NCBI GenBank assembly: GCA_963718565.1
Contig: OY970364.1
Coordinates: 512,001 to 576,000, forward strand
From: an uncultured Verrucomicrobiae bacterium
Lineage (GTDB): Bacteria > Chlamydiota > Chlamydiia > Chlamydiales > Rhabdochlamydiaceae
DNA: 64,000 nucleotides
Direction of reading: 5' to 3'
Positions 21,190 through 26,485 of this stretch are shown piece after piece. Under the pieces are notes generated by a model. That model made no database searches. It saw only the letters and a program-made list of their open reading frames with translations, and was not told where the DNA came from. Positions within the stretch are counted from its first letter, which is position 1; each line of letters opens with the position of its first letter. Position numbers and translations under genes: made by a program.

Positions 21190-22431
21190 ATGGCAGGAAT
21201 AACAACACCACCTATAGGTTCGAAGCATGTTGAGCAAGAGCTCATATCAAGCTATCCAACAGAACTTTTAACAGGGCTACCAGAAGATTTAGAGCGGGAT
21301 ATTCTAAGAATTGTACATTCATATGGCCTCAAGTGGGTTGCAATATCGGGCCGTGTTTGTAAGGGATGGAGTATTCTAACTCAAAGCGATGCGCTTTGGC
21401 GCCTGTTATTTTTGGACCGTTTTGGATTTCAAGTCCCAGCAAAAGCTGAGAGCTTAACAGCCTACAAAAAACAGTTGTTAGAGATATATCCCTTCTTACA
21501 CTGGGTCTGTAAGGTAACTAAATTCCATGTTCGCGGAGCGATTACTTGTATGACCGCAACCAGTGATCCTGATGGTAATGAGCGGGTGATCACAGGTTGC
21601 TCCTCTGGCCTTGTACAGATCTGGGAATTGCCAAGGGGCAATGCTTATACTTATAACGAGGGTTATAAGTATGACAGCTGCATCTCATCTTTAGCTGTTT
21701 ATAATCATTACGTCGCTGTTGGCTTTGATGAACATTATTTTGATAGTGGGACCCACCGTGATGAGGGGAGGGGGGGCCGTGAAGGTGATGATAAGGTGAT
21801 AGCACTGCGGAATACGAAAACAAACACGTCTGATATCTTAGAGGGGCACGAAAAACGTGTCCTTTGTCTTGGTATCAATGCTTTCATCATTGCTTCCGGT
21901 TCAGATGACAAAACACTCAAGATCTGGGATACCCATACAAGGGAGTGCCTTAATACATACATAGGACACACAGAGAGTATCTCGTGTCTTACAATGTCCG
22001 GTAATGATATTGTCGTTTCTGCTTCAAGATACTCTATTAGGGTGTGGGATATCTTCAGAAAGGCATGTGTTCACATTTTCAATTGCAACGCCTTTCGCCC
22101 AGCCTTGGCTTGTACAAATGGGCGTCTCATTTTTCGTGATGATGGTGAGGTTAAAATCCGGGACTTAACAACAGGGGGGAATCTCAAAGTAATAGATAAT
22201 AGGGTGTACGACATTGCCGCTGTGCAGAATAGTAGGTATTTCTTCCATTCTTCTACCTATCGCGGAGACAAGATTTCCATCTGTTCTACAGATGGAAAAT
22301 ATTTGTCCTACCGTTGGGTGTCTAAAATTTTTATTTGTATGACAACCATTAACAAGAAACTCGTATTAGGAATGGGCAAAACTGAGCCATATAGCATCAA
22401 GATCTTAGATTTCGGTGCAAACCCAGACTGA
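21190..22431 (+). CDS. F-box/WD40-repeat protein, copy 1
   Basis: F-box-like LPEDL...VCKGWSILTQSDALWR; WD40 repeats GHEKRVLCL..ASGSDDKTLKIWD and GHTESISCL..IRVWD. Confidence 0.9.
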   Translation: MAGITTPPIGSKHVEQELISSYPTELLTGLPEDLERDILRIVHSYGLKWVAISGRVCKGWSILTQSDALWRLLFLDRFGFQVPAKAESLTAYKKQLLEIYPFLHWVCKVTKFHVRGAITCMTATSDPDGNERVITGCSSGLVQIWELPRGNAYTYNEGYKYDSCISSLAVYNHYVAVGFDEHYFDSGTHRDEGRGGREGDDKVIALRNTKTNTSDILEGHEKRVLCLGINAFIIASGSDDKTLKIWDTHTRECLNTYIGHTESISCLTMSGNDIVVSASRYSIRVWDIFRKACVHIFNCNAFRPALACTNGRLIFRDDGEVKIRDLTTGGNLKVIDNRVYDIAAVQNSRYFFHSSTYRGDKISICSTDGKYLSYRWVSKIFICMTTINKKLVLGMGKTEPYSIKILDFGANPD

Positions 22432-22480
22432 AATTTTGAAGGGAATAGCTGAAATGTTCCAAGATTTTTCATCCGGTTTC

Positions 22481-23533
22481 TTAGGTAGCTTTGACGACGA
22501 GTGTGGAATAATCAAGCATATCATAGGTATAGCTAATGGGATGCTGGAGAGGGTTTTCGCTAAAATCGTTGGGAGAAGCAAGGGCAGTGTCGACAACGCG
22601 ATGCCATTTTTTTCCGTTGGGTGGCTGTGGAAGCTGAAGATGGACAGGTTGAAATTGAGCATTGAATGCGATATAGAGGGATTCTGATTTGATAGGATCA
22701 TGCAATGTATAAGCGAGGAACCGACTGTTTCCTCCCCAATCAGGTTGTTTAGGAACACGGCCATGCCATTCCACATCTGTATCTTTTAAAAAGTCTTTGC
22801 GTTTAAGCAAGGGATGTTTTTTTCGGAACTGGACCATCAAACGATGAAAACGTGCAAGTTCTGCATGCTTTTCGAGTTCATTCCATAAAAACCAATTGAG
22901 CGCATTGTCTTGGCCGTAGGCATTATTGTTGCCATTTCGGGTATGGCCATATTCATCTCCCATGAGAATCATCGGTGTGCCAATTGCGAGTAAAAGCGCC
23001 GCGTAGAAGTTGCGCATTTGCCGCTTGCGGAGCTGCAGGACTTTACGGCTATTCGTGGGTCCTTCGCATCCACAATTCCAACTATCATTTTGATTGGCTC
23101 CATCGCGATTGCCTTCGCCATTTTCTTCGTTGTACTTGTCTTGGTAACTGACTAAATCGCGCAGGGTAAAGCCATCGTGCGCCGTGACGAAATTGATGCT
23201 GTGGTAGGGTTTCCTTCCATTTCCGTAAAGATCCTGTGAGCCAGCCATGACTTTGGCAAATTCGCCGACTTGGTTGTCCGTCCCTTTAATGAATCGGCGT
23301 ACAACATCTCGATATTTGCCATTCCATTCTGCCCACCTTCCTCCTCCAGGAAAACTCCCGACTTGATAAAGACCGCCTGTATCCCACGCCTCAGCGATGA
23401 GTTTGACTTCAGCCAAGACAGGATCTGCATTGATCATTTGAATCACGATCGGGTTTCCAAGAGGGGTTCCATTTTCCTCTCGGGTTAAGCAGGAAGCGAG
23501 ATCAAAACGAAATCCATCCACGTGCATCTCATT
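22481..23533 (-). pseudogene. glgX: 5'-truncated duplicate of glgX
   Basis: Translation is identical to the C-terminal 348 aa of 26535-28595, cut by the IS end at 23534. Confidence 0.93.
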
Positions 23534-25000: not shown

Positions 25001-25240
25001 AAGAGCGGCCATCGATATTAGGCCAATCTTTCAGGAAAGGCGAGCGAGAAGGATCGATTTGGCAAAGTCGCAGCCTGTCAAAATTCACAAAACCTTCCTG
25101 CGCGCGGTATAATATTGTGTCTTTTGTAAAAAAAAATTTTAAAAATTTTACTTGTAATAAAAAAAGGATTTAATTATAGTTAAAAAGAGTGAAATTAAAA
25201 TTTTATAATAACTTTAAAACAAGATTACAAAGGACATTTT

Positions 25241-26485
25241 ATGGCAGGAATAACAACACCACCTATAGGTTCGAAGCATGTTGAGCAAGAGCTCATATCA
25301 AGCTATCCAACAGAACTTTTAACAGGGCTACCAGAAGATTTAGAGCGGGATATTCTAAGAATTGTACATTCATATGGCCTCAAGTGGGTTGCAATATCGG
25401 GCCGTGTTTGTAAGGGATGGAGTATCCTAACTCAAAGCGATGCGCTTTGGCGCCTGTTATTTTTGGACCGTTTTGGATTTCAAGTCCCAGCAAAAGCTGA
25501 GAGCTTAACAGCCTACAAAAAACAGTTGTTAGAGATATATCCCTTCTTACACTGGGTCTGTAAGGTAACTAAATTCCATGTTCGCGGAGCGATTACTTGT
25601 ATGACCGCAACCAGTGATCCTGATGGTAATGAGCGGGTGATCACAGGTTGCTCCTCTGGCCTTGTACAGATCTGGGAATTGCCAAGGGGCAATGCTTATG
25701 TGGAATGGAACGAGGGTTATAAGTATGACAGCTGCATCTCATCTTTAGCTGTTTATAATCATTACGTCGCTGTTGGCTTTGATGAACATTATTTTGATAG
25801 TGGGACCAACTGGGATGAGGGGGGGGGGGGCGGTGAAGGTGATGATAAGGTGATAGCACTGCGGAATACGAAAACAAACACGTCTGATATCTTAGAGGGG
25901 CACGAAAAACGTGTCCTTTGTCTTGGTATCAATGCTTTCATCATTGCTTCCGGTTCAGATGACAAAACACTCAAGATCTGGGATACCCATACAAGGGAGT
26001 GCCTTAATACATACATAGGACACACAGAGAGTATCTCGTGTCTTACAATGTCCGGTAATGATATTGTCGTTTCTGCTTCAAGATACTCTATTAGGGTGTG
26101 GGATATCTTCAGAAAGGCATGTGTTCACATTTTCAATTGCAACGCCTTTCGCCCAGCCTTGGCTTGTACAAATGGGCGTCTCATTTTTGATGATGATGGT
26201 GAGGTTAAAATCCGGGACTTAACAACAGGGGGGAATCTCAAAGTAATAGATAATAGGGTGCACGACATTGCCGCTGTGCAGAATAGTAGGTATTTCTTCC
26301 ATTCTTCTACCTATCGCGGAGACAAGATTTCCATCTGTTCTACCGATGGAAAATATTTGTCCTACCGTTGGGTGTCTAAAATTTTTATTTGTATGACAAC
26401 CATTAACAAGAAACTCGTATTAGGAATGAACAAAACTGAGCCATATAGCATCAAGATCTTAGATTTCGGTGCAAACCCAGACTGA
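25241..26485 (+). CDS. F-box/WD40-repeat protein, copy 2
   Basis: Near-identical paralog of 21190-22431; 414 aa. Confidence 0.9.
   Translation: MAGITTPPIGSKHVEQELISSYPTELLTGLPEDLERDILRIVHSYGLKWVAISGRVCKGWSILTQSDALWRLLFLDRFGFQVPAKAESLTAYKKQLLEIYPFLHWVCKVTKFHVRGAITCMTATSDPDGNERVITGCSSGLVQIWELPRGNAYVEWNEGYKYDSCISSLAVYNHYVAVGFDEHYFDSGTNWDEGGGGGEGDDKVIALRNTKTNTSDILEGHEKRVLCLGINAFIIASGSDDKTLKIWDTHTRECLNTYIGHTESISCLTMSGNDIVVSASRYSIRVWDIFRKACVHIFNCNAFRPALACTNGRLIFDDDGEVKIRDLTTGGNLKVIDNRVHDIAAVQNSRYFFHSSTYRGDKISICSTDGKYLSYRWVSKIFICMTTINKKLVLGMNKTEPYSIKILDFGANPD

Follow-up and report, generated by a model that had tools for sequence, protein, structure and literature searches.

A 64,000-nucleotide stretch of an environmental chlamydial genome (positions 512001-576000 of contig OY970364.1, which at 2,284,058 bp and 43.6% G+C is the genome's one contig; hereafter the window, by whose numbering positions are given unless they are marked as genome positions) contains two nearly identical genes for a protein that joins an F-box to a WD40 propeller. 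Comparison of the window with itself reveals a 3,046-bp tandem duplication that takes in this F-box/WD40 gene together with the 3' half of glgX. The order along the locus is: an insertion sequence (IS) remnant, IS_a; gene copy 1; the 3' fragment of glgX; a second IS, IS_b; gene copy 2; and the whole of glgX (Table 1). The same IS terminus, CCCGAGTTTGACACC, begins at 20488 and again at 23534, where it adjoins the interior of glgX, and other copies of the element in the genome begin at the very same base; the right boundary of the duplication (27587|27588) falls within intact glgX. With a boundary that is an IS terminus and a copy of the IS at the junction, the locus bears the signature of IS-mediated tandem duplication: an IS1634-family element made a second, tandem copy of a 3.0-kb segment, leaving the gene in two intact copies. 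The coincidence of boundary and terminus is directly seen; as for mechanism, an IS end would have attacked glgX on the sister chromosome. IS_a and IS_b have a private T (at 20686) in common, and IS_a has two further private changes (20635 and 20735). The form of IS_a (277 + 188 bp) recurs at genome 443964-444427, and a full-length copy of 1,914 bp lies at genome 376234-378147 (blastn). The IS_b transposase is called truncated because its match to NCBIfam NF033559 (E = 2.4e-73) spans only profile positions 66-366 of 483. The short dispersed repeat that precedes both gene copies carries a promoter-like TTCACA-18-TATAAT (21033-21062 and 25084-25113), which matches the consensus at 11 of 12 positions and is, by consensus scan only, the best promoter-like site of the region.

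Table 1. Features of the duplicated F-box/WD40 locus, with the states of its variable patches (window positions unless marked; residues numbered as in copy 1)
Feature	Position	Strand	Remarks
Unit 1	20488-23533		3,046 bp
Unit 2	23534-23810 + 24816-27587		split by ~1,005 bp of IS interior
IS_a	20488..20951		464-bp internally deleted, MITE-like (miniature inverted-repeat transposable element) IS1634-family remnant; left end is left boundary of duplicated unit
Short dispersed repeat	20986..21062; 25037-25113		upstream of both gene copies; ~75 nt; >60 blastn matches genome-wide; inverted-repeat pairs I1, I2
F-box/WD40 gene copy 1	21190..22431	+	413 aa; open reading frame (ORF)
F-box region	21259..21414	+	residues ~24-75; F-box-like match 46-75; identical in all four full-length alleles
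WD40 propeller	21511..22410	+	residues 108-407; seven blades; N-terminal strand 108-113 closes blade 7 (DSSP, AlphaFold model)
Hairpin 1, copy 1	21647..21672	+	perfect 11-nt arms, ATACTTATAAC-gagg-GTTATAAGTAT; completed by ACTTAT state
Block A, copy 1	21649-21654	+	ACTTAT; T154-Y155, start of strand D, blade 1
Block A, copy 2	25700-25708	+	GTGGAATGG; V-E-W
Block B	21754..21778	+	H189/N, R190/W, R194/G (E in other alleles), R197/G
Block C	22135..22136	+	R316/D; other alleles also alter 318-320
Block D	22207	+	Y340/H; Gly added before V339 in P0118
Hairpin 2, copy 1	22274..22298	+	perfect 11-nt arms, TTTCCATCTGT-tct-ACAGATGGAAA; completed by synonymous A at 22290; 4-nt arms in copy 2
Block E	22375..22376	+	G396/N
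Allele states, residues 149-197			149 R/S; block A TY/VEW/KDILW; 189-190 HR/NW; 194 R/G/E; 197 R/G
Allele states, residues 316-396			316-320 RDDGE/DDDGE/DDADG; Gly insertion before V339; 340 Y/H; 396 G/N
Truncated glgX	22481..23533	-	C-terminal 348 codons; identical to corresponding part of full gene
IS_b	23534..25002		IS1634-family element at duplication junction; 1,469 bp; two internal deletions
IS_b transposase ORF	23825-24865	-	NF033559
Template of KDILW insert	25230..25244	+	AAGGACATTTTATGG; 15 nt; ribosome-binding region and ATGG start of gene copy 2
F-box/WD40 gene copy 2	25241..26485	+	414 aa; ORF
G12 homopolymer	25819..25830	+	block B, copy 2; one of three G/C runs of at least 10 nt in the 2.28-Mb genome
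Intact glgX	26535..28595	-	686 aa; Pfam Alpha-amylase, CBM_48 and isoamylase C-terminal domains
Group II intron reverse transcriptase/maturase	genome 489438-490924 (L013:1165-2651)		apparently frameshifted, two frames

The protein is a WD40 β-propeller by profile (Pfam WD40, PF00400, 54.7 bits against a cut-off of 27) and by predicted fold: the AlphaFold model used here (m341aeed629e3, from an alignment of 68 family members; confidence score pLDDT 82.1, predicted template-modelling score pTM 0.80) arranges 28 strands in a closed propeller of seven four-stranded blades. A model from an alignment of the four alleles (pLDDT 29.1) was discarded. By profile the F-box of this gene stays below the Pfam gathering score: F-box-like (PF12937) reaches 17.2 bits with the whole protein and 19.2 bits with residues 1-120, against a cut-off of 24.3, and covers profile positions 17-46 only. 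Scanned with the same profile, the N-termini of 22 family members from the genus all match (E up to 0.01), 19 of them above the cut-off. In the predicted model, the helices that precede the propeller (residues 24-104, with N-terminal helices at 24-27, 32-45, 47-53, 58-64 and 67-78 and a linker helix) form a three-helix F-box and a linker that packs on the propeller, as in receptors bound to Skp1. Foldseek places chains of Fbw7, Cdc4 and FBXW11/β-TrCP from Skp1 complexes at ranks 1-10 in the PDB, with 435-486 aligned columns (2ovr_B at E = 1.6e-22, followed by 7t1z, 3mks, 6wnx and 6m93), at 14-20% sequence identity. The model thus shows F-box, helical linker and WD40 propeller in a single chain, the plan of the Skp1-cullin-F-box (SCF) receptors Fbw7, Cdc4 and β-TrCP, from which the bacterial protein differs in that low identity, in its sub-threshold F-box and, in comparison with the eight-bladed propellers of Fbw7 and Cdc4, in its predicted seven blades. 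The SCF receptors Fbw7, Cdc4 and β-TrCP bind degrons at the top face of the propeller, often by way of arginines. By analogy, the chlamydial protein would be secreted into the host cell, dock on host Skp1 and hand host proteins to the ubiquitin machinery.

The neighbourhood agrees with a chlamydial origin: PRK12422 and PRK01001 are the best NCBIfam models for its dnaA and yidC genes and a CPn0927/CPn0928-family protein is present, all of which we take to be chlamydial markers. The genome has about 20 F-box/WD40 paralogs, none closer than 22% identity (tblastn). An ortholog was not found in the genomes of 40 relatives; WD40 matches occur in 19 of 41 relatives' genomes and, among the matches listed, none exceeds ~48% identity, each spanning one to two blades. 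Near-length proteins of 5.8 billion clusters also yielded no ortholog, and a search of 1.84 billion cluster representatives returned only the gene's own cluster and giant multi-WD40 proteins that aligned one blade at a time, again with no ortholog. On these sequence searches the gene is apparently restricted to this species. Further tandem F-box/WD40 pairs or arrays lie outside the window, at genome 928075-931020 and 617446-623498.

Exact global alignment of unit 1 with unit 2, from which the IS interior was taken out, leaves 24 differing columns, 19 of them in the gene. The original prediction had described the two copies as differing almost only by clustered, multi-base, nonsynonymous codon changes, and each change that it listed is present: ACTTAT/GTGGAATGG, CAC/AAC, CGT/TGG, AGG/GGG, CGT/GGT, CGT/GAT, TAC/CAC and GGC/AAC, together with synonymous differences at 21375 and 22290. 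It was also right in confining amino-acid change to the WD40 part (residues 154-396, all within the propeller), and in reporting an F-box part that translates identically (F-box and linker do so) and an identical glgX fragment. The latter identity extends to the nucleotide level: the 1,102 bp that follow the stop codon (22432-23533; spacer and glgX fragment) contain not a single difference, so that a glgX as diverged as the gene, which would have told against the prediction, is not what is found. Four upstream non-coding differences had been missed, at 20635, 20735 and, as a tandem AA/TT, at 21086-87. Substituted bases number 15 of 1,242 in the gene and 4 of 1,804 in the flanks (Fisher p = 0.0014); counted as events, they are 10-11 in the gene and 3 in the flanks (p = 0.010-0.005). 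These are whole-flank figures: dropping the IS part of the flank was judged unjustified because IS_a's two differences are private changes. What does not hold up is the implied nonsynonymous excess. Nei-Gojobori counting with block A excluded gives 9.5 nonsynonymous differences on 961 sites and 2.5 synonymous differences on 272 sites, for a dN/dS ratio (ω) of 1.08 that is not significantly above 1 (Fisher p = 1.0; dS ~0.009); the nonsynonymous:synonymous count of this pair consequently carries no signal. The replaced residues have a direction of their own: four of the seven are arginine in copy 1 (P = 4e-4), and the net charge is +3 versus -3.

By the textbook rule of WD40 topology, the top face of the propeller is built from D-A and B-C loops. 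Block B occupies part of blade 2's long B-C loop (residues 181-203, with pLDDT <50 at 184-195); the arginine of block C ends strand B of blade 5, beside the B-C turn; the tyrosine of block D belongs to the D-A loop that links blades 5 and 6, and the glycine of block E to the B-C loop of blade 7. Thus, all but one of the five patches in which the pair differs are in predicted D-A or B-C loops, and the exception, block A, is the largest. With 79 of the 306 propeller residues, the top loops hold six of the nine that vary between the pair and nine of the 16 that vary over all alleles (binomial P = 0.012 and 0.009, respectively, rough figures, as the patches are not independent). The original prediction, that the changed residues would map to one, substrate-binding, face is accordingly sustained for most of the patches and fails for block A. 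To the extent that the model can be relied on, the placing of four patches on the face at which SCF receptors bind substrate is largely supported.

Further alleles vary at the same places. Besides the two copies, the cluster formed at 90% identity contains just P0001 and P0118, and the four proteins are identical save at the patches of Table 1; over the copies and the further alleles, variation is limited to about six short patches. Logan contigs of four metagenome runs (X1, X2, X5 and X6, from three studies), aligned to 24816-28600, show the polymorphism at the variable codons that had been proposed as a check: the same patches vary, with E194, DDADG, KDILW and S149 as new states, and in the listed pieces the flanks differ by at most one letter. 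Run X1 has no difference in ~1,391 nt outside the gene and, inside it, 10 substituted and three deleted letters, all in patches or at 26344; X2 has one difference in ~868 nt outside the gene (both flank lengths summed by hand). S149 and KDILW are carried by X2 and X5, and one X5 contig joins KDILW to the block B of copy 1; DDADG is found in X1 and X6, and the TY of copy 1 in X1. Parts of 24816-28600 have no contig over them in X5 and X6, and these gaps are left out of account. A Fisher p of 1.2e-4 for the metagenome contigs rested on rounded numbers (11 of ~1,100). All length differences in block A, and the glycine insertion, are multiples of 3.

The multi-base changes have an origin that can in part be read from the DNA itself. 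Copy 1 has two perfect hairpins with arms of at least 9 nt, the only ones in the gene (3.5% of 400 sampled positions being covered), and each is completed by the copy-1 state at a site of difference; in copy 2 the hairpin scan finds no inverted repeat of at least 4 nt covering the site of the first. Over the whole window such arms occur at six distinct places (a hand count from 19 nested rows), one sequence being in both units. A variant that perfects a repeat left incomplete in the other allele is the mark of template-switch mutation. On the copy-2 background, a local repeat of at least 11 nt would result from 66 of the 3,735 possible single changes, the copy-1 state at 26344 (C to A; the counterpart of 22290) included. 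The KDILW insert of block A matches 25230-25244 in 15 of 15 bases and is a direct copy from 460 nt upstream; relative to copy 2, the edits in X2 and X5 are 25700 G>A, 25701 T>A and CATTTT inserted behind 25704. For block A of copy 2, the 11-mer 25698-25708 has its reverse complement at 26820-26830, inside glgX and 1.1 kb downstream. Short repeats are also evened out: AA>TT at 21086-87 yields tandem AAAAATTTT, CGT>GAT in block C yields (GAT)3 in copy 2, and A>G at the position of 21769 yields the G12 run of copy 2. An 8-mer common to blocks B and C of copy 1, CGTGATGA, is suggestive only. Five of the 10-11 gene events (CAC>AAC, CGT>TGG, CGT>GGT, TAC>CAC and GGC>AAC) gave, in a search for local templates, only 7-9-nt matches, which is the chance level. 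For some of the patches, then, these comparisons show multi-base changes to be single templated events, by template switching that perfects a quasi-palindrome, by verbatim copying from nearby or by homogenisation of short repeats, and templated mutation may be said largely to explain the multi-base changes.

Clustered multi-base changes that arise by template switching and perfect inverted repeats are reported for E. coli (PMC7202029), yeast coding genes (PMC8604942) and human mutation clusters (PMC9435742). The events at 21647-21672 and 22274-22298 resemble such quasi-palindrome mutagenesis in clustering changes and indels that perfect an imperfect inverted repeat; in contrast to classic hairpin correction, the 15-nt direct copy and the 11-nt inverted copy come from farther off. 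The original prediction had offered patchy gene conversion as one source of the changes, and that is right insofar as small-scale copying, from a few bases to ~1 kb, has taken place within the locus. It does not extend to a donor paralog: conversion from a paralog is rejected, the next-best tblastn match being 22% identical. Homopolymers are a hallmark of contingency loci, the poly-G tracts of the Chlamydia pneumoniae pmp genes for example, and copy 2 resembles these in its in-frame G12 run; unlike them, it has yielded no length variant or frameshifted form, and the sole, low-depth, contig across the run (X1) has it broken by an A. The only other long homopolymers of the genome are a G15 and a C15 (L035:1041-1055 and 3320-3334; genome 2253540 and 2255820), inverted ends that face each other around a 2.2-kb segment with a 334-aa ORF.

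What filters this variation is the harder question. Diversifying selection on the substrate-binding surface is the most likely answer, and on balance the one that we favour, if by no great degree of confidence. Error-prone motifs would feed variation into that surface, and selection would keep the reading frame, the F-box and the strands while retaining or favouring variants of the binding loops; copies with surfaces of opposite charge (+3 and -3) would then represent an early stage in the divergence of target specificity. The strong diversifying selection that was originally proposed gains from the variation of the same patches among strains with matched flanks and from the directional shift from arginine to neutral or acidic residues, and loses by the ω of the pair. 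Three states of codon 194 (R, G and E) are found among near-identical strains. The greater density of change in the gene than in its flanks, the in-frame length changes and the untouched F-box and strands also speak for selection or constraint. Other F-box/WD40 tandem pairs have ω of 0.91 and 1.25, and two unrelated tandem duplicates in the genome 0.05 and 0.40; in the pair with ω of 1.25 (genome 928075/929713) the value is 1.66 for the WD40 part (one-sided p = 0.058) and 0.79 for the N-terminus.

A considerable list of facts weighs on the other side. The ω of 1.08 is the neutral expectation, and the searches of relatives' genomes and cluster databases supplied no ortholog by which the changes could be polarised. 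The quasi-palindrome, the G12 run and the GAT repeats coincide with some of the patches, and a higher mutation rate at these spots could by itself account for the surplus of change in the gene over its flanks, with no need of positive selection. Among the templated changes, one is synonymous and one lies in non-coding DNA, and templated change is, for that reason, not aimed at the protein. Block A and R149, at the C-D loop and start of strand D of blade 1, are on the bottom or rim of the propeller and not on its top face; the faces were themselves assigned from the strand order of the model and general WD40 topology rather than from atomic coordinates. The Logan contigs have a depth of 2-5, with haplotypes unphased across contigs, and the extra changes in X2, L141R and D274Y, may be errors.

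Much of this list serves equally the notion that the patches are neutral hotspots: the fold and the F-box would be under purifying selection, the tolerant loops would happen to be encoded by mutable DNA, and the patches would mark nothing but frequent, harmless mutation. The neutral ω of the pair, templated changes at the synonymous 22290 and the non-coding 21086-87, the G12 run and (GAT)3 inside patches, and a block A that is a templated indel hotspot with three alleles off the top face are all as this notion would have them. Against it stand the lack of a local template of at least 9 nt for CAC>AAC, CGT>GGT and TAC>CAC (with the matches for CGT>TGG and GGC>AAC at chance level), the directional loss of four arginines (P = 4e-4), the three-state codon 194 in near-identical strains, the ω of 1.66 in the WD40 part of the sister pair, and a neutral glgX fragment without a change in 1,102 bp. 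We regard neutral hotspots as unlikely, and as the alternative most to be reckoned with; selection and neutral hotspots in tolerant loops cannot yet be separated.

It is a more doubtful proposition, and we put it forward as no more than a tentative one, that the loop-coding DNA is itself a diversification device, in which quasi-palindromes, homopolymer and triplet repeats channel self-templated insertions and replacements (the 15-nt copy of the start region included) into the substrate-binding propeller. If that were true, the locus would provide a retroelement-free way, independent of diversity-generating retroelements (DGRs), to re-aim an injected ubiquitin-ligase adaptor, with the duplication as a spare copy and recombination to shuffle the patches.

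Recombination might also have done the work unaided, one copy having been overwritten in short tracts from diverged alleles of other strains or copies, so that the pair samples an older, shuffled pool of alleles. Patch states do occur in varied combinations: KDILW goes with HR-R-R on one X5 contig and with NW-E-R in P0118, and X1 mixes copy-1-like with copy-2-like states. The two synonymous differences exceed the 0.2 that the flank rate predicts (P = 0.018), and both are polymorphic among the runs; R149 is in both copies here, and S149 in alleles that are otherwise nearest to copy 2. However, no synonymous differences hitch-hike beside the patches, and the combinations on single contigs fit, as we read them, one mutational series free of four-gamete conflict. 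Moreover, no more than one difference separates the flanks of strains from the three studies, so that the allele pool looks young. Recombination would in any case leave the source of the patch diversity unexplained, and we consider it improbable as the principal cause.

Far less credible is an assembly artefact, a spurious tandem duplication put together from the alleles of two strains. The genome may derive from a metagenome and alleles of the gene do co-occur in soil runs, but the boundary of the unit is an IS terminus to the base, set directly against internal glgX sequence; IS_a (464 bp) and IS_b (1,469 bp) are built differently and yet have one private base in common; the genome assembled as a single 2.28-Mb contig; and the states of both copies recur in independent runs.

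A DGR or other dedicated targeted mutator that rewrites the loops is the least probable explanation of all. DGR variation, that of Mtd in Bordetella phage BPP-1 for example, is likewise found on a ligand-binding surface and mostly at first and second codon positions, and the original prediction had pointed to several changes in the first two positions of NNY codons as a pattern that DGR mutagenesis also produces, with the reservation that neither copy fits as a template and that the window has no reverse transcriptase; the changes are not limited to adenines (G, C and T are hit as well), include in-frame indels of 3, 6 and 9 nt and are spread over ~730 nt. A genome-wide search for a third, template-like copy of the variable region found none at word size 11, and relaxed blastn of both variable segments (word size 7, E up to 10) returned only the two copies; no close paralog emerged either. 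The genome's only RVT_1 gene lies ~42 kb ahead of copy 1 and codes, in two separate frames, for a group II intron maturase, both of its RVT_1 matches (genome 489774-490402) also matching TIGR04416 (E = 1.1e-59 and 2.2e-43). With neither a DGR-type reverse transcriptase nor a template repeat, the DGR is rejected.

Diversifying selection of templated variants, the explanation that we prefer, has to be set against what is known of F-box effectors in chlamydiae. According to Domman et al. (2014; PMC4209131), the large expansions of F-box and BTB-box effectors in the Parachlamydiaceae are lineage-specific tandem arrays under birth-and-death evolution, with a global ω of 0.29-0.63, purifying selection only and no positive selection for these families, and the time during which early diversification after duplication can be seen is said to be very small; the word WD40 is absent from the paper's main text. 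The arrays of F-box genes in environmental chlamydiae are the point of resemblance. The present pair differs in being of the WD40 type, in its dS of ~0.009 and ω of ~1, and in the confinement of change to loops; by comparison with the chlamydial F-box expansions described there, it shows a WD40-type family at the very first stage that follows duplication. The locus lies within the brief period of early diversification, with the mechanism of duplication still legible, change in loop patches and the same patches multi-allelic in three studies, and one small amplicon would suffice for testing selection against drift. It also sounds a caution for tests of positive selection: multi-nucleotide changes are reported, in a preprint (10.1101/165969), to mimic positive selection, and the clusters of multi-base nonsynonymous change that resemble selection or a DGR are here, in part, single templated events.

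A conserved propeller framework with hypervariability at its top face, and shuffling between copies, is also the pattern of the fungal NWD/HNWD genes (het-e/het-d), which encode proteins like the NOD-like receptors (NLRs); their hypervariable WD40 repeats are reportedly the subject of work by Paoletti in 2007 and Chevanne in 2010. The likeness lies in the framework and the top-face variation, a pattern that a sister array in another genome (G003) also shows. In contrast to the fungal genes, the blades of the present gene are mutually dissimilar, and repeat-to-repeat exchange within the gene therefore cannot be the source of its variation. The G003 array (L015:1660-9969; contig 1, 1177000-1188000) consists of six tandem F-box/WD40 paralogs that are 70-92% identical; its blades are near-identical (GKLISGSxDxTIKIWDLETGxCTQTLxGH...), and variation centres on the three residues that follow GH, in strand A, and on the positions that flank the turn Asp.

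Elsewhere in the window, a 600-aa ORF at 47222-49024 (+ strand) has weak matches (E ~1e-6) to the catalytic domain of E3 ligases of the IpaH/SspH2/SlrP (NEL) type and would be a second type of ubiquitin-system mimic. A perfect hairpin with 32-nt arms (31081-31149) lies just downstream of dnaA (31256-32632, - strand), and a 38-nt perfect palindrome at 29579-29616; each may be a terminator or an origin-related element. Of the unrelated tandem duplicates in the genome, that at 49582-52359 (402/403 aa) has 21 synonymous and four nonsynonymous differences (ω 0.05), and that at 2017248-2019389 (ω 0.40) has its differences crowded at one end of the gene, with 10 codons that have multiple changes. For the dispersed repeat upstream of the F-box/WD40 genes, 19486-19655 is listed as a further occurrence in the window. 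The IS load of the genome is very heavy: there are 624 distinct repeat pairs of at least 700 bp at ≥94% identity, and many families have copies that are 99.9-100% identical. One such repeated element occupies 11351-13390 of the window (genome 523351-525390) and is found again at genome 794693 and 1040277.

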